Assembly: GCA_003220265.1 (NCBI GenBank)
Contig: QHRW01000115.1
Span: 1,391 to 65,390 of the forward strand
DNA length: 64,000 bases
Reading direction: 5' to 3'
Origin: Candidatus Rokuibacteriota bacterium
GTDB lineage: Bacteria; Methylomirabilota; Methylomirabilia; Rokubacteriales; CSP1-6
The position numbers and the translations under genes were made by a program. Numbering within the stretch: position 1 is the first letter of the stretch; every line of letters begins with the position of its first letter. Shown here piece after piece: positions 14,801 to 62,825 of the stretch. The notes under the pieces are model-generated. The model worked only from the letters and a program-made list of their open reading frames with translations, did no database searches and was not told the DNA's origin.

Positions 14801-16245
14801 GCCTCCGAGCGCACGACCTCGCGGAAGGTCTCGCGCGCCAGCGTGCGGTAGGGGAACGCGCTCACGAACCGCTCGTAGAGCGCATCCACGCCGATCGACT
14901 CGGCGGCCACGGCCGCGACGACCTGCTGGGCCAGCACGTCCAGCGGCGCCTCCGGCATCGCGATGCGATCGAGGCGATGCTCGCGGATCGTGCGCACGAC
15001 GGCCGCGGCCTCCAGCAGCTCCTCGCCTTTCGTGACGAGAATGCGCCCCTTCGAGGTGCGCGACAGCAGATGGCCGGCGCGCCCCACGCGCTGCAGCGCG
15101 GCCGCCACGTTGCGCGGCGACTGCACCTGGATCACGAGGTCGATCGCGCCCACGTCGATGCCGAGCTCGAGCGACGAGGTGGCGACGAGCGCCCGCAGCT
15201 CGCCCGCCTTGAGCCGGTTCTCGGCCTCCAGCCGCGCGCGCCGCGAGAGTGACCCATGATGGGCCGCCACTTTGTTGCCGAAGGGGGCTACGCCCCCCTC
15301 GCTCTCCCCTTTGTTGGCGAAGGGGGCTACGCCCCCCTCGCTCTCCCCCGGTCCATCGGGGATCCGATCGTTGAGGTCCCGCGCCAGCCGCTCGGCCGCC
15401 CGCCGGCTCTGCGCGAACACCAGCGTCGTGCGGTGGGCCAGCACCAGCTCGGCGATCTGCTGGAGCGCCGCGTCCCACACGGTGTCGCTGGTCGCCGTGA
15501 GGAAGTCGTCCACCGGCGAGACGACCTGCACGTCGAGGTCGCGCGAGAAGCCGGCGTCCACAACCAACGGTTCGCGCCCGGTGGCGCCCGTCAGAAAGGC
15601 CAGCGCATCCTCGATGGGGCTCACCGTCGCCGAGCAGCCGATGCGCTGCGGGCGCGCGCCCGGCTCACGCTCGGCCACCAGCGCCTGCAGCCGCTCCAGC
15701 GAGAGCGCGAGGTGAGAGCCGCGCTTGCTGCCCATGAGCGCGTGGACCTCGTCCACGATGACGAAGCGGGCCTGGGCCAGCGCCGGCCGGAAGCCCGCGC
15801 TCGTGAGCAGGATGTAGAGCGACTCGGGCGTGGTGATCAGCACGTGAGGCGGCCGTCGGGTCATCGCCTGGCGCGCGGCCGCCAGCGTGTCGCCGGTGCG
15901 GACGGCCACGCGGACCTCGGGGACGTCGAGGCCGTCGGCCTCGGCCGCGGCGCGGATGCCGGCCAGTGGCTCGCGCAGGTTCTTCTCGATGTCGTTGTTC
16001 AGCGCGCGCAGCGGCGAGACGTAGACCACGTAGACGCGGTCCTCGAGACGTCCCTCGAGCCCCAGCCGGTGCAGGTGGTCCAGCGCCCACAGAAACGACG
16101 CCAGCGTCTTGCCGGACCCCGTCGGCGCCACGATGAGCGTGTCGCGGCCGGAGGCGATCGCGTCCCAGCCCTCACGCTGCGGGCGGGTGGCCTCGGTGAA
16201 CGTCGCCTCGAACCAGCGACGGACGAAGGGGAGGAACTGCGGCAT
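11830..16245 (-). CDS. lhr: ATP-dependent helicase Lhr (large helicase-related, DEAD/DEAH superfamily 2)
   Basis: 1471 aa: APTGSGKT (Walker A), VIVDEVH, CSATV, HHGSLSRRAR, TSSLELGIDVG, QRVGRAGH, plus a long Lhr-type C-terminal domain. Confidence 0.9.
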   Translation of the reverse strand: MPQFLPFVRRWFEATFTEATRPQREGWDAIASGRDTLIVAPTGSGKTLASFLWALDHLHRLGLEGRLEDRVYVVYVSPLRALNNDIEKNLREPLAGIRAAAEADGLDVPEVRVAVRTGDTLAAARQAMTRRPPHVLITTPESLYILLTSAGFRPALAQARFVIVDEVHALMGSKRGSHLALSLERLQALVAEREPGARPQRIGCSATVSPIEDALAFLTGATGREPLVVDAGFSRDLDVQVVSPVDDFLTATSDTVWDAALQQIAELVLAHRTTLVFAQSRRAAERLARDLNDRIPDGPGESEGGVAPFANKGESEGGVAPFGNKVAAHHGSLSRRARLEAENRLKAGELRALVATSSLELGIDVGAIDLVIQVQSPRNVAAALQRVGRAGHLLSRTSKGRILVTKGEELLEAAAVVRTIREHRLDRIAMPEAPLDVLAQQVVAAVAAESIGVDALYERFVSAFPYRTLARETFREVVRSEAEPLPAEVKGVAPRILWDRVNDRLHARRGSRFLALTAGGTIPDAGLYDVYVAETDLKVGTLDEEFVTESLPGDVFLLGSHAWKIAKVRADRVLVEDAQGMSPTIPFWKGEHPSRSWDLGVAVGRLRRDAAERLDAPDFAAWAARECGLDARATAAMHAWLVKAGEVLQGVADDQGIVVESFSDEMGGRHAMIHSVFGMRINGAWGMALREQVRRRFGLQAEVSHVDDGILLSFAPGQVPPAPERLVTLVAPEELDNLLGEALIGSPLFGTRFRHAAVRALFIPRMTRGQRTPAYLQRLKADALLEAVKGQPDFPVVAETLRECFNDAYDVPRLKRVLERLHDGEMWTRHVDTPVPSPFVYPLLLAWDWAYLDTGHAEERRSDTVAMRKNWSVAPGPLRPEIIAAVEAELQRTTPERRARDANELAAILDDLGDLTRAEIGERVVSDADALIAALLAERRITLVEFGARHAWIPATDAPLYAGLATEAGLERIALRALRTRGPVTAQSLAERYGLTPDDIQPALERLVARGVVRRGDFMREELEGGSAPLKLERYLHIAVLDEIQRRQVHARRVPRPVATAEQFAAFLLRRHHLHPEHRLVGPPGVLAALELLQGEDFPVKVWEQDLLSARVEDYQREWLDRLGLAGEIVWTVFEPAAGRVGVALRDNVGWLRETGERPELDPKTKNVLLHLQLRGASFARDLARGAGLEPPQVEAALWDLFRAGLATPDTFSAIVAAAASPRGAETGSARRRRPRRGQARGLLAHLPPIGRWSALAEEERLSPEEREEARAQLLLARYAVVTRELARGDWATLRHTLLRMEYGGEVVRGYFVEGLSGEQYALEDSLTNLAASPRRAEPHVLVNLADPANLWGRAWPLSRRDGGRLGVARLPHAWLIVRAGRPVVVAENYGRELTPLAAFEPVDLPGTVRALQTLMERPLTLRPVRRLEIVGWDSRPIRETEAFAAFIEAGFSADGARLTWDGYPGPRLLR
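13151..13181. repeat. 31-nt palindrome (14-bp stem, 3-nt loop) embedded in frame in lhr
   Basis: AGCTTGAGGGGGGC-GCT-GCCCCCCTCAAGCT, paired by hand. On the gene strand it encodes ELEGGSAPLKL. Confidence 0.75.
15271..15348. repeat. 2 x 39-nt in-frame tandem duplication inside lhr, each copy carrying a GC hairpin
   Basis: 15271-15309 and 15310-15348 differ at 1 of 39 positions. The core is CGAAGGGGGC-TAC-GCCCCCCTCG. They encode GESEGGVAPFANK and GESEGGVAPFGNK. Confidence 0.85.
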
Positions 16246-28741: not shown

Positions 28742-29494
28742 CTAGAGCGCGAGAAGCTCGTGCCGCAGCGCCTGGTCGTCGCGCAGGCGGGCGGCGGGGC
28801 CGCTGAAGCGAATCGAGCCCTTCTCCAGCACGTAGACGCGGTCGGCCAGGGCCAGCGAGAACTCGGTGTTCTGCTCGGCGAGCAGAATGGTCAGTCCCTC
28901 GTGCTTGAGCCGCGCGATCTGCTCGCGCAGGTGATCGACGACGAGCGGCGCCAGGCCTTCGGAGGGCTCGTCGAGGAGCAGCAGCTCGGGGTTGCCCATG
29001 AGCGTCCGCGCGATGGTCAGCATCTGCTGCTCGCCACCCGAGAGATAGCCGCCGTTGCGCCCGGTCAGCTCGCGCAGCTTGGGGAAGAGATCGAAGACTC
29101 GCTCCACGGTCCATTGGAGCGGGTGCCGGGAGTCCGGATCGCTCCGAGGGTGGCCTGGTCTAGATGCGGCGTGGCTCCGTTTACTGGCGACGTCCAGGTT
29201 CTCCCAGACCGTGAGGTCGGCGAAGATGCGCCGGTCTTCGGGGACGAAGCCGATGCCGGCCTGGGCGACTCGGTACGGCGGCCAGCCGGTGATGTCGACG
29301 GACTTCCACGTGATGCGGCCCGCCTGCGGCGGCGTGAGGCCCATGATCGAGCGCATCGTCGTCGACTTGCCCACACCGTTGCGGCCGAGCAGGCACACGC
29401 ACTCGCCGGCCGCCACCTCCAGCGACACGCCGAACAGCACGCGTGAGAGCCCGTAGGCCGTGTGCACGTCGTGCGCCTCCAGGACGACACTCAT
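28742..29494 (-). CDS. livF: Branched-chain amino acid ABC transporter ATP-binding protein LivF
   Basis: MSVVLEAHDVHTAYG...GRNGVGKSTT (Walker A), LSGGEQQML, LLLLDEPSEGL. The real start is ATG 29494; the 373-aa ORF extension reads through the repeats. Confidence 0.9.
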   Translation of the reverse strand: MSVVLEAHDVHTAYGLSRVLFGVSLEVAAGECVCLLGRNGVGKSTTMRSIMGLTPPQAGRITWKSVDITGWPPYRVAQAGIGFVPEDRRIFADLTVWENLDVASKRSHAASRPGHPRSDPDSRHPLQWTVERVFDLFPKLRELTGRNGGYLSGGEQQMLTIARTLMGNPELLLLDEPSEGLAPLVVDHLREQIARLKHEGLTILLAEQNTEFSLALADRVYVLEKGSIRFSGPAARLRDDQALRHELLAL

Positions 29495-29948
29495 CTCTCG
29501 ACGTGGGGGGCCCCGACATGGCCCCCCACACCCCCCAACGCTCGGAGTGCCCCGGGGAACCCGTGGCACTCCTCGATTTCCCGCGTGCTCATCTCTCGAC
29601 GTGGGGGGGCCCCGACATGGCCCCCCACACCCCCCAACGCTCGGAGTGCCCCGGGGAGCCCGTGGCACTCCTCGAGTTCCCGCGTGCTCATCCTCTCGAC
29701 GTGGGGGGCCCCGACATGGCCCCCCACACCCCCCAACGCTCGGAGTGCCCCGGGGAACCCGTCGCACTCCTCGAGTTCCCGCGTGCTCATCTCTCGACGG
29801 GGGGCCCCGACATGGCCCCCCACCCCCGCCAACGCTCGGAGTGCCCCGGGGAACCCGTGGCACTCCTCAAGTTCCCGCGTGCTCATCTCTCGACGGGGGG
29901 CCCCGACATGGCCCAACCCGTCGTACTCCTCGATTCCCCGCGTGCTCA
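29491..29948. repeat. Tandem array 1 of the two-hairpin GC-rich repeat family (5 units: 98, 99, 99, 96, 63 nt)
   Basis: On the plus strand, units start at 29491, 29589, 29688, 29787 and 29883, each beginning TCATC(C)TCTCGACG. Hairpin 1 is at 29503-29529 and hairpin 2 at 29544-29572. Confidence 0.9.
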
Positions 29949-30683
29949 TCGGCGCTCGCCCAGGTAGACGCGGCGGACCTCGGCGTCGGCGCGGACGTCG
30001 GCGGGCGCGCCCTCGGCGATCACGCGGCCCTGGTGGAGCACGGTGATCTTCTGCGCGATCGAGAAGACGACCTCCATGTCGTGCTCGGTGAACAGGAGCG
30101 TGAGGCCCCGCTCGCGCGCGATGCGCTCGACGAGACGGATCGTCTCGCGCGTCTCGGAGACGGACATGCCCGCCGTCGGCTCGTCGAGCAGGAGCAGCGA
30201 CGGCTCGCTGGCCAGCGCGATGCCGAGCTCGAGCTGCTTCTGGGCGCCGTGGGAGAGGAAGCCGCTCACCTCGCCGGCGCGCTCGCGCAGGCCCAGCGAC
30301 GCCAGCAGCGCCTCGGTCTCGCCCCGGTAGAGCTCGTCCACGCGGCTCCAGAGATCGAGCCCGCGCCCCCGGTGCGACAGGAACGCGGCCTGCACGTTCT
30401 GGTAGACCGTCAGCCGGGGAAAGATGTTCGTGCGCTGGAAGGAGCGCCCCATGCCGAGGCGGCAGACGTCGTGCGGGGGCAGCCCGGTGATGTCGCGGCC
30501 CTCGAGCACGACGGCGCCCGCCTCCGGCCGGAGGTGGCCGGTGATCAGGTTGAACAGCGTCGTCTTGCCGGCGCCGTTCGGGCCGATGATCGCCGCGATC
30601 TGCCCGCGGGCCACGCTGACGCTGGCGTCGTTGACGGCCACGAAGCCGTCGAACGACTTGCGCACGCCACGCACCTCGAGCAT
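29946..30683 (-). CDS. livG: Branched-chain amino acid ABC transporter ATP-binding protein LivG
   Basis: MLEVRGVRKSFDGFVAVNDASV...GPNGAGKTTLFN, LSHGAQKQLE, LLLLDEPTAGM. Internal start of ORF 29946..31283. Confidence 0.9.
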   Translation of the reverse strand: MLEVRGVRKSFDGFVAVNDASVSVARGQIAAIIGPNGAGKTTLFNLITGHLRPEAGAVVLEGRDITGLPPHDVCRLGMGRSFQRTNIFPRLTVYQNVQAAFLSHRGRGLDLWSRVDELYRGETEALLASLGLRERAGEVSGFLSHGAQKQLELGIALASEPSLLLLDEPTAGMSVSETRETIRLVERIARERGLTLLFTEHDMEVVFSIAQKITVLHQGRVIAEGAPADVRADAEVRRVYLGERR

Positions 30684-31636
30684 CAGGCGGGCCGCCGCAG
30701 CCAGCGCAGCGCGGTGCCGGCGGCGCCGGCGAGACCGCCGGGGAAGACGAACAGCAGCACGATCAAAATGGTGCCGAGCACGAACGGCCAGTACTCCGTG
30801 TACGAGACGATCTGCTGGTTGAGCAGGATCAGCGCGAGGGCGCCCAGCGCGGGGCCGTAGAACGTCCCCATGCCGCCCAGCAGCGTCATGATGAGCACCT
30901 CGGACGACTTCGTCCAGTAGGCGAAATCGGGAAAGACGCCGCGGTTGAAGATGCCGAAGAGACCGCCGGCGAGCCCCGCGAAGGCGCCGGCCAGCACGAA
31001 GGCGGCCAGCTCGTAGCGCCGCACGTTGACGCCGATGAACTCTGCGCGCTCGGCGTTCTCGCGGATCGTGGTCAGCATCCGCCCGAACGGCGAGCCGACC
31101 ACGCGCCGCAGCACCCACAGGCAGAGCGCCACCAGCACGACGGTGACCAGGTAGAAGTGGTCGCTCGTCCGGAGCCCACCCACCAGCGGCAGCCGGCCCA
31201 TCCAGTCCAGGCTCGGATAGGGGATCTCCGGCATGCCCTGCTCGCCGCCGGTCACCTCGTTCCACTTGAAGCAGATGGCCCACACGATCTGCGCGAAGGC
31301 CAGCGTGAGCATGGCGAAGTAGATGCGCGTGAGGCGCACGCAGAAGAAGCCGAAGAGCAGCGCGAACCCGCCGGCCAGCACGCCGGCGGCGGGGAAGGCG
31401 ATCAGGAACGGCAGCGAGAGCTTCTTCATGAGCAGGCCGGTCGTGTAGGCCCCGATGCCGAAGTAGGCGGCGTGGCCGAACGAGACGAGCCCGGTGTAGC
31501 CGACGAGCAGGTTGAGGCTGGTGGCGAAGAGCGCCCAGATCAGCACGTCGTTGGCCAGGAACGTGTAGAAGCGCGAGCCCAGCGCCGGCACCAGCAGCGC
31601 CGCCGCCAGCAGCGCGAGCTCCCAGGGCGCGCGCAT
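30683..31636 (-). CDS. livM: Branched-chain amino acid ABC transporter permease LivM
   Basis: MRAPWELALLAAALLVPAL...LLVGYTGLVSFGHAAYFGIGAY. Internal start of ORF 30683..32356. Confidence 0.85.
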   Translation of the reverse strand: MRAPWELALLAAALLVPALGSRFYTFLANDVLIWALFATSLNLLVGYTGLVSFGHAAYFGIGAYTTGLLMKKLSLPFLIAFPAAGVLAGGFALLFGFFCVRLTRIYFAMLTLAFAQIVWAICFKWNEVTGGEQGMPEIPYPSLDWMGRLPLVGGLRTSDHFYLVTVVLVALCLWVLRRVVGSPFGRMLTTIRENAERAEFIGVNVRRYELAAFVLAGAFAGLAGGLFGIFNRGVFPDFAYWTKSSEVLIMTLLGGMGTFYGPALGALALILLNQQIVSYTEYWPFVLGTILIVLLFVFPGGLAGAAGTALRWLRRPA

Positions 31637-38327: not shown

Positions 38328-39815
<1,488 letters not shown>

Positions 39816-39830
<15 letters not shown>

Positions 39831-40110
39831 CGCGCCGCTGATCGCGGAGCGCCACGGCCTGGCCGGGGCGCTCCGAGCGCGGGGGGGCGTGGGGGGCCAT
39901 TTCGGGGCCCCCCACGACGGGCGGTGAAGCGGGTCATCGCGCCGGTGATCGCGGAGCCCCCCGGCGTGGCCGGGGCGCTCCGAGCGCCGGGGGGCATGGG
40001 GGCCATTTCGGGGCCCCCCACGACGGGCGGTGAAGCGGGTCATCGCGCCGGTGATCGAGGAGCGCCGCGGCTTGGCCGGGGCGCTCCGAGGGCCGGGGGG
40101 GCGTGGGCAT
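39816..40110. repeat. Tandem array 2 of the two-hairpin repeat family (107 + 106 nt units plus one 5'-truncated unit), in opposite orientation to arrays 1 and 3
   Basis: On the plus strand, units start with GGTGAAGCGG(C/G)TCATCGCGCC at 39816, 39923 and 40029. Hairpin 2 is at 39846-39874. Hairpin 1 is GTGGGGGGCC-ATTTCGG-GGCCCCCCAC. Confidence 0.9.
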
Positions 40111-40326
40111 CTCGCCGCCGGCCGCGCTCATCACGGCCTGGATGTTGGCGCACACCTGGCGGAACTGGGCCACGACGTCGCCCTTGCCCACCACGACGTT
40201 GTTGCCGTCGCGCGCGACCTGGCCGGCGATGAACACGAGGCGGCCGTGCTTGACCTCGAAGCCGTACGAGAAGCCCTGCGGCTTCGGCAGCGTGCGGGGC
40301 AGCACCGACGAGATGTGGTCCTTCAT
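39934..40326 (-). pseudogene. ridA: RidA/YjgF family gene truncated after about residue 73 and fused in frame to repeat-derived sequence
   Basis: MKDHISSVLPRTLPKPQGFSYGFEVKHGRLVFIAGQVARDG...QFRQVCANIQAVMSAAGGEM is RidA-like. From 40107 downward the ORF reads through repeats as PTPPRPSERPGQAAALLDHRRDDPLHRPSWGAPKWPP... Confidence 0.7.
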
Positions 40327-47900: not shown

Positions 47901-47927
47901 GCACCAGGATCTCGGACAGGTTAACGA

Positions 47928-48010
47928 GGGCCGCCCCGGCTGCGCCGGGGCGGCCCGAGCGTCGGGGGGGTTGGGGCCATCTCGGGGGAACGTCCATAGG
48001 GACCCCCCAC
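47928..48010. repeat. Solo degenerate copy of the two-hairpin repeat (same orientation as array 2)
   Basis: A perfect 29-nt palindrome GGGCCGCCCCGGC-TGC-GCCGGGGCGGCCC lies at 47928-47956. It is followed by GAGCGTCGGGGGGGTTGGGGCCATCTCGGGGG...CCCCCCAC, which aligns with array 2 except for an insertion of about 13 nt in hairpin 1. Confidence 0.7.
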
Positions 48011-48084
48011 TGCCGCCCACGTTGAGCGACGCGCCACCCTCGCCCGTGCGTTGGCAGTTTATCCATCACGCGCTCGCTCCAACG

Positions 48085-49395
48085 CGTTGTTAGGCGCCGG
48101 GCAGGTACAAACCGGGTACATAGGTAACACATCAAACCGGGAACATGGGTGACACCACTAAGGTCGTCGGTCAACGGGAGGTTGGCCGATGGCCTGGCTG
48201 GAGACATCACCCGTGGAGCAGCGAGAGCGGTTCATCCGCGATCACCGAATCGGGTTGTACACGATGGCGGAACTCTGTGCCCGTTACGACGTCAGTCGGA
48301 AGACCGGCTACAAATGGCTCGCGCGCTTCGACGCCGCGGGTCGCGCCGGTCTCCAGGACCGCAGCCGCGCGCCGCACCACTGCCCGCACCGGATCACTCC
48401 GGATGTCGCCGCGGTGATCTGTGCCGCGCGCCGGCAGCATCCGAGCTGGGGACCCGCGAAGCTCTTGGCGTGGCTGGAGCGTCGGCAACCGGCGCTGGAG
48501 CTGCCCGCGATCAGCACCGCCGGCGATCTCTTGGCGCGCCGCGGGCTAGTGAAGACACGACGGCGCCGCCGCCACTACGAGCATCCTGGTGTCGTTCCGA
48601 TCAGGACGACGGCGCCCAACGATCTCTGGACCGCGGACTTCAAGGGCCATTTTCGAACACGTGATGGGCTCTATTGCTATCCGCTCACCGTCGCCGACCA
48701 GCACACGCGCTATCTCTTGGCGTGCCATGGCCTGCTCTCGACCAAAGGCGGCGGCGTGCGCCCGGTCTTCGATCGACTGTTCCGCGAGTATGGGCTCCCC
48801 CAGGCCATTCGGACCGACAACGGCGTGCCGTTCGCCACGACGGGCATTCACGGCCTCTCCCAGTTGAACGTGTGGTGGCTGCGTCTGGGCATTCAGCACC
48901 AGCGGATCCGCCCGGCCTCGCCGCAGGAGAACGCCGCCCACGAGCGCATGCACAAAACGCTCAAGGGCGAGGCGATTCGGCCGCCCCGGTCAACGTGCGT
49001 CACTCAGCAGCGCGCCTTTAACGGCTTTCGCCACCTGTACAACGACGAGCGACCCCACGAAGCGTTGCAGGGGCGCACGCCGGTGTCGCTCTACCGTCCC
49101 TCGCGGCGGGAGTACACCGGGGCGGTACCGCCCGTCGAGTACCCCGGACACTTCATCGTCAAGCGGGTGACCAATGCCGGCACGATCCGGCTGAACAAGC
49201 GCCTACTCTTCATTGCGAATGCGCTGAAGCAGCACCCGGTCGGGCTCGAGGAGGTCGACGACGGCATCTGGTCCATTCATTTCTGCCGCGTGCTATTGGG
49301 GCGCGTGGACGAACGGGACTACATCATCAGAACGTGAACGGTTACCCATGTTCCCGGTTTACGGTGTTACCTATCTTCCCGGTTGCTCAGCACAA
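48085..49395 (+). mobile_element. IS481-family insertion sequence (ends approximate)
   Basis: A single DDE transposase ORF is flanked by imperfect inverted ends: left ...AACCGGGTACATAGGTAACAC..AAACCGGGAACATGGGT, and the reverse complement on the right. Termini are near TGTTAGGC (48088) and GCTCAGCACA (49394). Confidence 0.75.
48189..49337 (+). CDS. IS481-family transposase (HTH + rve/DDE integrase core)
   Basis: 382 aa: MAWLETSPVEQRERFI..., LWTADFKG, IRTDNGVPF, PQENAAHERMHKTLK, YNDERPHEAL. Confidence 0.85.
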   Translation: MAWLETSPVEQRERFIRDHRIGLYTMAELCARYDVSRKTGYKWLARFDAAGRAGLQDRSRAPHHCPHRITPDVAAVICAARRQHPSWGPAKLLAWLERRQPALELPAISTAGDLLARRGLVKTRRRRRHYEHPGVVPIRTTAPNDLWTADFKGHFRTRDGLYCYPLTVADQHTRYLLACHGLLSTKGGGVRPVFDRLFREYGLPQAIRTDNGVPFATTGIHGLSQLNVWWLRLGIQHQRIRPASPQENAAHERMHKTLKGEAIRPPRSTCVTQQRAFNGFRHLYNDERPHEALQGRTPVSLYRPSRREYTGAVPPVEYPGHFIVKRVTNAGTIRLNKRLLFIANALKQHPVGLEEVDDGIWSIHFCRVLLGRVDERDYIIRT

Positions 49396-62492: not shown

Positions 62493-62825
62493 TCATGGGG
62501 GCCACGAAATGGCCCCCAAACCCCCCGACGTTCGAAGCGCCCCGGCGGAGCCGTGGCGCTTCTCTGGAATGGTCCAGCGTCATGGGGGCCTCGACATGGC
62601 GCCCCCAAACCCCCCGACGTTCGAAGCGCCCCGGCGGAGCCGTGGCGCTTCTCTGGAATGGTCAGCGTCATGGGGGCCTCGACATGGCGCCCCCAAACCC
62701 CCCGACGTTCGAAGCGCCCCGGCGGAGCCGTGGCGCTTCTCTGGAATGGTCAGCGTCATGGGGGCCCCGAGATGGCCGCCAAGCCCCCACACGTTCGTCG
62801 CGCCCCGGCGCTTCTCTGGAAGCTG
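62493..62825. repeat. Tandem array 3 of the two-hairpin repeat family (87, 88, 88 nt plus one degenerate unit)
   Basis: Units start with TCATGGGGGCC at 62493, 62580, 62668 and 62756. Hairpin 2 of unit 1 is at 62534-62562. The last unit has lost the hairpin-2 loop. Confidence 0.9.

Follow-up and report, generated by a model that had tools for sequence, protein, structure and literature searches.

Repetitive extragenic palindromic (REP) elements of the GTAG and CGTC superfamilies have a stem of 5-13 bp with an unpaired GTAG or CGTC tag, occur predominantly as inverted dimers and are associated with a REP-associated tyrosine transposase (RAYT) gene (Di Nocera et al. 2013). Clusters of REPs are reiterated in tandem together with flanking DNA, lie mostly downstream of coding regions and are plausibly active as RNA (PMC3733652), and a passage of Nunvar et al. 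(2010) states that the REPs and bacterial interspersed mosaic elements (BIMEs) of enterobacteria bind host proteins. Compensatory changes have been reported for the hairpins of REP doublets forming hairpins (REPINs) (PMC3116915). They also preserve the fold of bcr1 of Bacillus, a dispersed repeat of non-conserved distribution that is flanked by direct repeats (PMC3184786). Mycobacterial interspersed repetitive units (MIRUs) integrate at a start codon and bring a -4 coupled open reading frame (ORF) (PMC12548453), and both empty and filled MIRU sites are described, with direct repeats (PMC3184786). Here we describe a repeat family found in a 64,000-nt stretch of a Candidatus Rokuibacteriota genome (contig QHRW01000115.1, hereafter the window), where it forms three arrays and a solo copy. 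A first-pass annotation of the window had drawn attention to a 29-nt hairpin at these four loci, here termed H2, and had proposed that its pairing is kept by matched substitutions on the two arms. We found that the H2 hairpin is real and statistically solid and that the evidence supports maintenance of the pairing itself, and that H2 forms the second of two stem-loops in a non-coding repeat of about 88-106 nt that is modular and oriented.

All four 29-mers were confirmed in the window sequence (Table 1), as were the matched arm changes between them: five stem pairs vary between the loci, namely outer positions 2-5 and the loop-closing pair, and every one of these changes is compensated. The triloop and the single internal mismatch had also been described as varying freely. 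This proved to be an orientation artefact, since the H2 copies of array 2 and of the solo locus had been read on the opposite strand; once all are turned to the common element orientation, arrays 1-3 show a C facing T at the internal position, and the solo copy shows a C-G pair there. As DNA, all four 29-mers fold into the proposed hairpin with z-scores of -3.7 to -4.8 (z = -4.6 and -12.1 kcal/mol for the copy at 29544-29572), and the predicted DNA stability of the hairpins is -12 to -20 kcal/mol. As RNA, either strand of a whole unit folds into two hairpins; for the array 1 unit the same was obtained with DNA. A covariance model of H2 and its flanks found 11 intact copies and one deleted remnant in the window, exclusively at the four loci. 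These scored 31-61 bits forward versus 15-27 bits in reverse, so that the strand was clearly told apart, and no score in the rest of the window exceeded 19 bits.

Each unit consists, in this order, of a first hairpin (H1), a C-rich linker, the unpaired motif CG[CT]TCG (CGCTCG), H2, CTCGA, and a subfamily-specific tail of ~20-35 nt. The consensus of H1 is N-T-G5-6-CC / CCGANAT / GG-C5-6-A-N', with a 7-nt loop, and H2 has a stem of 12-13 bp closed by a triloop. In and around H2, sequence is conserved in both flanks (CGCTCG and CTCGA), along the inner stem (CCGG..CCGG-like), at the A of the loop and at the C of the internal position. Because unpaired flanks, inner stem, loop A and internal C are conserved in this way, the element is oriented and is no plain palindrome.

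We collected the family by scanning one genome per species with a pattern for H1 and linker that contained no H2 sequence, and the family-wide counts given here rest on loci from among the at least 112 matches to this pattern that were listed. Loci and contigs fetched from related genomes and from orthologous sites are denoted by L-numbers (L001 and so on). Two alignments of H2 were used. In alignment A1 the hairpin was cut out by its unpaired anchors only (CG[CT]TCG, 27 nt, CTC), ignoring pairing, which yielded 55 distinct and gapless copies; CG[CT]TCG and CTC are invariant in A1 by construction, having served as extraction anchors, and the full flank motifs recur in copies gathered on H1 alone. 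Alignment A2 holds the matches to a covariance model fitted to the structure, 145 in 0.77 Mb of related loci, of which 117 are distinct, and includes two reverse-strand duplicates. Each alignment was compared with 500 shuffles, a test in which the shared descent of the copies is not corrected for; two measures that count pairs were rarely inflated by relatedness in the trials of the tool itself, and both lay beyond every shuffle.

Anchor matches linked to H1 formed 7-12 of the 12 Watson-Crick pairs in 72 of 73 cases, and those unlinked to H1 mostly formed 0-6, with 8-11 pairs in 9 of 54. In A1, 91.2% of cells were paired versus 80.3% after shuffling, double changes occurred in 10 of the 12 pairs versus 4.3 ± 1.0 expected, and the covariation score was 0.267 versus 0.090; the observed values were reached in none of the 500 shuffles. 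Sliding the register as a control lowered pairing to 38-53%. The larger alignment A2 was 93.8% paired, with double changes in all 12 pairs and 25 extra pair types, again beyond all 500 shuffles on every measure. Its loop-closing pair was C-G in 70 copies and G-C in 43, and outer pair 3 was A-U in 46, C-G in 32 and G-C in 15, with non-pairs frequent among the outer three pairs. Altogether 19 different fully paired stem haplotypes of H2 were found, four of them within one genome. At the internal position of the 117 copies the 5' base was C in ~95%, and the 3' base T (52) or G (53); the third loop base was A in at least 90% of the A1 copies. H1 covaries as well. The lengths of its G and C runs are matched (41 copies have 5/5, 55 have 6/6 and 10 are mixed; p = 3e-18), and its outermost pair takes all four Watson-Crick types and is paired in 67 of 99 copies versus 24 expected (0/20000 shuffles).

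Stem differences between loci comprised 100 compensated doubles and 64 broken pairs, in contrast to the unit-private stem changes within arrays, where 3 were compensated and 9 uncompensated (Fisher p = 0.03). In array 1, the H2 copy at 29742-29770 carries one uncompensated G-to-C change. Mostly compensated changes between loci and mostly uncompensated ones within arrays are the pattern expected of a filter that acts when lineages spread and not after a unit has landed. The first-pass annotation had set structure against primary sequence as the object of selection. Its claim that pairing is kept gains from the larger, pairing-blind sample and from this contrast between and within loci, with the qualification that the sequence of flanks, inner stem, loop A and internal C is also strongly conserved.

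The orientation of neighbouring genes was determined at 135 clusters with a codon-position G+C phase test on 300 nt each side of the cluster, which we adopted because simple gene calling over whole loci extended ORFs across the arrays and overlooked real genes. The element was sense to co-directional genes at 28 clusters and antisense at 30, making 58 copies between co-directional genes, and lay between convergent genes at 26 and between divergent genes at 1. Since convergent and divergent spacers alternate along any chromosome, 26 versus 1 (p = 4e-7) shows that spacers with promoters only are truly avoided. The 28 sense and 30 antisense clusters reveal no orientation preference. Within clusters, copies shared a single orientation in 132 of 135 and were mixed in 3. 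A strand-specific tolerance of G-U pairs, which had been proposed beforehand as the test of an RNA role, gave no signal: mismatches on the element strand were of the G:T type in 14 cases and of the A:C type in 28, and a recount on the transcribed strand of co-directional neighbours gave 10 and 9. The ratio of C:T to C:G at the internal position was equal in sense and antisense copies. Because the asymmetric motifs are equally conserved where the transcript carries their complement, the pattern points toward a constraint intrinsic to the element DNA rather than to a sense-strand RNA, and we infer that DNA is probably the folded species.

The subfamily of array 1 sits exactly at ATGA stop/start junctions and bears a translationally coupled mini-ORF. 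The ATG of the 152-codon ORF in the window overlaps the stop of the livG-like gene (ATGA), and its TGA overlaps the start of the livF-like gene (ATGA). Read on the gene strand, each unit of array 1 starts with ATG and closes with a TGA overlapping the ATG that follows. The frame is still kept in the last unit (about 29885-29945, next to livG), which has an internal deletion. This coupled chain is intact in all five loci of 1-5 units: the window, L114 (163 codons), L115 (33 + 66 codons), L078 and L060 (33 codons each). The copies in L078 and L060 are single units at unrelated loci, and the chain is kept in both. Arrays 2 and 3, which are sense and whose periods (106 and 88 nt) are not divisible by 3, are without the coupled-ORF design.

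Orthologous sites were available for two of the arrays. The livG/livF junction is empty in three orthologues (L118-L120; LivF 83-89% identical), in which the livG stop overlaps the livF start as TTGA or GTGA. Between the ZIP transporter gene and aroQ, the spacer measures 5-26 nt in five orthologous loci (L125-L129) versus 357-363 nt with the array, and one empty site comes from a metagenome-assembled genome (MAG) that carries the element at other loci. As these sites occur empty, the copies are inserted DNA. The filled livG/livF site in the window has ATGAGC at one border and ATGAGT at the opposite one (ATGAG[C/T]), and no terminal inverted repeats beyond the internal hairpins were recognised at the flanks of the livG/livF and solo copies. 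Array size at livG/livF varies among assemblies with identical LivF, with 4.4 units in the window, 5 in L114 and 3 in L115. Three more contigs with identical LivF (L113, L116, L117) start inside array 1; L113 had been a candidate for an empty site and was rejected, since a gene had been called straight through the array in which the contig starts. The units of array 2 each repeat the first ~23 nt of the downstream gene. At other loci, solo copies often stand between direct repeats of 6-14 nt whose distances vary; L091 has a 14-nt direct repeat, consistent with insertion into the 3' end of a gene.

We put at about 0.6 the probability that the family is an inserted, locally amplified intergenic repeat of Rokubacteria whose pairing is kept through the spread or retention of foldable lineages, most likely as single-stranded DNA (ssDNA). 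Copies would insert between genes and then amplify head-to-tail into small arrays. They would persist only where at least one gene ends, and one subfamily would do so on ATGA overlaps with its own mini-ORF, leaving the operon undisturbed. Pairing of both hairpins would be kept because only lineages still able to fold go on spreading or being retained, and a unit once in place would decay neutrally. The weakest step concerns the folding species, which would most likely be single-stranded element DNA during mobilisation or replication-linked amplification; this is suggested by the conservation of the asymmetric features (unpaired flanks, C opposite T or G, loop A) whichever way the element faces transcription. 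We infer mobility as the mechanism of spreading. Several points weigh against this account. The sample is non-independent, having been gathered via a conserved H1 pattern and with many loci from few MAGs. The direct repeats flanking copies are irregular (5-14 nt at varying distances), which does not fit a single clean transposition mechanism, and the filled ZIP-aroQ site has no evident direct repeat. Because array 2 units carry copied flanking gene sequence, part of the spread is local duplication and not transposition. When about 0.9 Mb of loci bearing the element was searched by tblastn with E. coli RayT, only noise came up (E about 4), and the genes between oppositely oriented elements were ordinary ones: pgeF in the ftsZ-yggS cluster (L061), atpC (L050) and a methyltransferase (L011). 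Selection may also act on RNA, or on RNA and DNA both.

The restriction of elements to places at which a gene ends (26 convergent versus 1 divergent) would suit a host-selected RNA element, whose transcribed hairpins could protect mRNA 3' ends, be processing sites, act as U-tract-independent terminators or regulate translational coupling; avoidance of promoter-only spacers is, however, equally expected from purifying selection against harmful insertions. H1 often starts a few bases past the upstream stop codon, and REPs are mostly downstream of coding regions and plausibly RNA-active (PMC3733652), but no T run follows either hairpin of the Rokubacteria element and orthologous operons exist without it. 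The same two hairpins do fold as RNA from both strands. With no orientation bias (28/30) and asymmetric motifs equally conserved, however, half of the transcripts would carry the complement, and the transcribed strand has no excess of G-U-compatible mismatches (10 versus 9). The mini-ORF chain does show that gene expression constrains array 1. Taken together, we consider selection on such an RNA somewhat unlikely. Matched changes could arise even with no selection on structure or any function, if the palindrome extruded and mismatches were corrected off the other arm, by gene conversion within the element or by template switching. The great stability of the hairpins as DNA (-12 to -20 kcal/mol) and the clearly frequent, replication-linked rearrangement of the arrays would favour such a process. 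Efficient correction would nevertheless erase the mid-stem C:T mismatch, which persists in about half of the 117 copies and in many stem haplotypes; unit-private array changes are mostly uncompensated (9 versus 3), the outer three pairs tolerate frequent non-pairs, and the length covariation of H1 is unexplained by simple mismatch correction. Arm correction is in our judgement quite improbable as the source of the covariation.

A palindromic duplex DNA site for a dimeric nucleoid or regulatory protein would explain why inner stem (CCGG..CCGG-like) and flanks are conserved in sequence, and the enterobacterial REP and BIME elements, in the passage of Nunvar et al. (2010) mentioned above, bind host proteins. 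A protein that reads bases would keep the sequence of its half-sites and not 19 paired haplotypes, four of them in one genome, and the conserved asymmetric mismatch is impossible in duplex DNA, which makes a site of this kind very improbable. A protein-coding repeat, that is, a repeated peptide module under amino-acid constraint, is hardly credible: two of the periods (106 and 88 nt) cannot be divided by 3, copies of the element face either way and lie in non-coding spacers, its substitutions match across the stem instead of being synonymous, and the segment is missing from orthologues, all of which count for more than the 152-codon ORF through array 1 and the ORFs that extend into arrays 2 and 3. 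The inserted repeat with pairing kept through foldable lineages is the reading that we favour. A further proposal goes beyond it. The two asymmetric hairpins and their unpaired flanks could be the signals of a phylum-specific ssDNA mobilisation system distinct from RAYT/REP, with a putative enzyme and head-to-tail copying, in which a MIRU-like landing on ATGA evolved independently in one lineage; we regard this as speculative and unlikely. If true, it would constitute a second independent insertion type that spares operon expression, and would give a handle on novel transposition or amplification in an uncultured phylum.

The scan with H1 and linker returned at least 112 stretches. Among the 112 matches listed, 105 were labelled Rokubacteria, Rokuibacteriota or Methylomirabilota and the remaining stretches came from soil bins under other labels, so that as far as the scan shows the family appears specific to Rokubacteria/Methylomirabilota among the matches listed. 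Neither the unit nor the H1-linker pattern had a match in 2.9 million viral contigs or in plasmid and phage collections. Rfam 15 gave no match in the whole window at gathering thresholds, and a permissive Rfam scan of array 1 gave chance-level hits only (14-24 bits versus thresholds of 40-60). In the literature on repeats, intergenic and palindromic elements of Rokubacteria we found no description of the family, which appears to be undescribed so far. Two standard identities were tried and rejected. An intrinsic terminator would require a T run, and there is none after the hairpins (H2 is followed by CTCGA and opposite-strand H1 by ACGTCGAGAG). In a CRISPR array the spacers would be unique, and here whole units, including the inter-hairpin stretches, repeat at 91-95% identity with no unique spacers.

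Judged from the copies collected, the repeat family looks to be a kit of exchangeable hairpin modules. H1 was seen joined to other 3' partners in L001, L010, L031, L085, L096 and L101, in L066, L067, L069 and L083, and at L011:1540-1600. These alternative contexts include a variant, CTGCGGGGGCCnAGAnATGGCCCCCGCACTCCCCCC, followed by unrelated sequence, an H1 followed by a different palindrome (GCGATCGAGCC..GGCTCGATCGC), and an H1 with another loop (GGGGGGACTATCGAAGCCCCCC). Extra modules of linker and H2 without H1 stand 3' of a complete element in L027, L034, L058, L065, L068, L095 and L104, and therefore H2 can be reiterated alone. A second C6 run (29530-29536 and equivalents) follows H1 in nearly every copy, and could in principle pair with the G-run instead of the H1 3' arm or yield three opposite-strand G-runs. 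An A/T-rich TGATTGA-like motif, with stop codons in two frames, was observed a few bases 5' of H1 in sense-oriented copies at unrelated loci (e.g. L005, L008, L030, L059, L061, L068, L087, L099), and may be a part of the element that supplies a stop for the upstream gene.

The features of the window are listed in Table 1. The RidA-like ORF upstream of array 2 matches its profile no further than position 63 of 121, beyond which it continues into the array; the gene appears to have been truncated by array 2 or by an array-linked deletion. The solo copy has a fully paired H2, including the internal C-G, and an H1 interrupted by about 16 nt. It lies after an enoyl-CoA hydratase gene and adjoins an IS481-family transposase gene (both by Pfam). 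The product of the latter was considered as a mobiliser and set aside, being a DDE enzyme at one locus only with no evident link to the repeat. The transposase gene is preceded by a stretch of low G+C that holds a 25-nt tandem repeat (48108-48155). Elsewhere in the window, at 15270-15348, there are two tandem 39-nt units, each with a different G/C hairpin (GAAGGGGGC-TAC-GCCCCCCTC). This 39-nt module is also present in L003, L082 and L090, and these genomes thus seem to have a second family of small hairpin repeats.

Table 1. Repeat units, hairpins and neighbouring genes in the window (positions count from its first nucleotide; TRF, Tandem Repeats Finder)
Feature	Position	Strand	Details
Array 1	29490..29949	element +, antisense to flanking genes	4.4 head-to-tail units of 99 nt; TRF 29490-29914, period 99, 4.4 copies, 95% identity
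H2 29-mer, array 1	29544-29572	+	GGAGTGCCCCGGGGAACCCGTGGCACTCC; common element orientation GGAGTGCC-C-CGGG-GAA-CCCG-T-GGCACTCC
H2 copies, array 1	29544-29572, 29643-29671, 29742-29770, 29838-29866	+	covariance model, 61.3, 57.7, 56.6, 54.0 bits
H1, unit 1 of array 1	29503..29529	+	GTGGGGGGCC-CCGACAT-GGCCCCCCAC; predicted 10-bp stem
Further H1 copies, array 1	29602-29626, 29701-29725, 29798-29821; truncated 29894-29914	+	pattern matches
C-rich linker and unpaired motif into H2	29530..29543	+	ACCCCCCAACGCTC-G
Conserved CTCGA after H2	29572-29576	+	
152-codon ORF through array 1	29491..29949	-	ORF list
livF-like ABC ATPase gene, downstream of array 1	28742..29494	-	Pfam ABC_tran, E = 2.4e-30
livG-like ABC ATPase ORF, upstream of array 1	29946..31283	-	Pfam ABC_tran and BCA_ABC_TP_C
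Array 2	39809..40107	element -, sense to genes	2.8 units of 106 nt; TRF 91% identity
H2 29-mer, array 2	39846-39874	read on +	GGAGCGCCACGGCCTGGCCGGGGCGCTCC; common element orientation GGAGCGCC-C-CGGC-CAG-GCCG-T-GGCGCTCC
H2 copies, array 2	39846-39874, 39953-39981, 40059-40087	-	covariance model
H1 copies, array 2	39891-39915, 39998-40021	-	
RidA/L-PSP-like ORF, upstream of array 2	39934..40326	-	Pfam Ribonuc_L-PSP, residues 21-73 only
NADH:flavin oxidoreductase gene, downstream of array 2	38328..39830	-	Pfam Oxidored_FMN
Solo copy	47924..48011	-	H2 47928-47956 at 52.2 bits, then linker, then H1
H2 29-mer, solo copy	47928-47956	read on +	GGGCCGCCCCGGCTGCGCCGGGGCGGCCC; common element orientation GGGCCGCC-C-CGGC-GCA-GCCG-G-GGCGGCCC
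IS481-family DDE transposase gene	48060-49337		HTH_32, rve, LZ_Tnp_IS481
Array 3	62493..62818	element +, sense	3.6 units of 88 nt, between ZIP transporter gene and aroQ; TRF 62493-62810, period 88, 3.6 copies, 93% identity
H2 29-mer, array 3	62534-62562	+	GAAGCGCCCCGGCGGAGCCGTGGCGCTTC; common element orientation GAAGCGCC-C-CGGC-GGA-GCCG-T-GGCGCTTC
H2 copies, array 3	62534-62562, 62623-62651, 62711-62739; deleted remnant 62792-62818	+	covariance model
H1 copies, array 3	62496-62517, 62583-62606, 62671-62694, 62760-62780	+	

Small structured repeats shape operon expression and genome plasticity. Arrays such as these break metagenome assemblies, several contigs starting or ending inside an array, and spawn spurious ORF calls. 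With four loci in 64 kb the family is a dense marker of Rokubacteria genomes, and its arrays provide variable-number loci for strain typing in soil and groundwater metagenomes.

Compared with the known systems, the Rokubacteria element shares with REP, BIME and REPIN sequences a short stem-loop that is rich in G+C, measures ~30 nt and recurs many times in extragenic DNA (145 matches in 0.77 Mb), a position downstream of genes and inside operons (convergent 26 versus divergent 1), an imperfect stem with a conserved mismatch, conserved unpaired bases beside the stem, and compensatory changes. Array 2 duplicates flanking DNA, as do REP clusters reiterated with their flanks (PMC3733652). Unlike REPs, the element has no GTAG or CGTC tag but the flanks CG[CT]TCG and CTCGA, and CGTC is read on the opposite strand only in copies whose linker happens to be GACG. 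Its units are arranged head-to-tail, whereas REPs typically form head-to-head or tail-to-tail dimers, and it joins two different hairpins by a C-rich linker, in another host phylum and with no RAYT or other Y1 transposase found by the RayT search in about 0.9 Mb around the elements.

The likeness to MIRUs is one of described features. It comprises tandem units of the 40-100 bp class (99, 106 and 88 nt) in variable number between operon genes of a genome high in G+C, the occurrence of sites both empty and filled, with short direct repeats where livG/livF is filled, and a unit ORF with 4-nt overlaps to the adjacent stop and start (array 1, L114, L115, L060, L078). In contrast to MIRUs, the coupled ORF is confined to one subfamily, two strong covarying hairpins dominate the unit, and the element occurs in both orientations relative to genes. 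With bcr1 and other repeats resembling miniature inverted-repeat transposable elements (MITEs) the family shares a dispersed, non-coding nature, a distribution that is not conserved between genomes, flanking direct repeats and compensatory changes; its units are much shorter and in tandem arrays, and no terminal inverted repeats or target duplication of fixed length were seen. The insertion sequences of the IS200/IS605 family (IS608) carry subterminal ssDNA hairpins that are imperfect, have unpaired bases and are recognised on one strand by a Y1/HUH transposase. Transposases of the HUH/Y1 type do not duplicate their target. The Rokubacteria element looks similar in having two unlike, imperfect hairpins that keep conserved unpaired bases and are read on one strand, which is a resemblance only (see also the discussion in PMC3116915); neither tnpA nor tnpB was found between the hairpins or next to them, and the direct repeats at livG/livF are unexpected for that mechanism. 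Compensatory change in such repeats has already been documented for REPINs and bcr1, and the kind is thus known, the family being a new one. It leaves the known categories unchanged. By uniting REP-like covarying hairpins with MIRU-like coupled mini-ORFs, it offers a useful comparison on the question of host-serving versus self-serving repeats.

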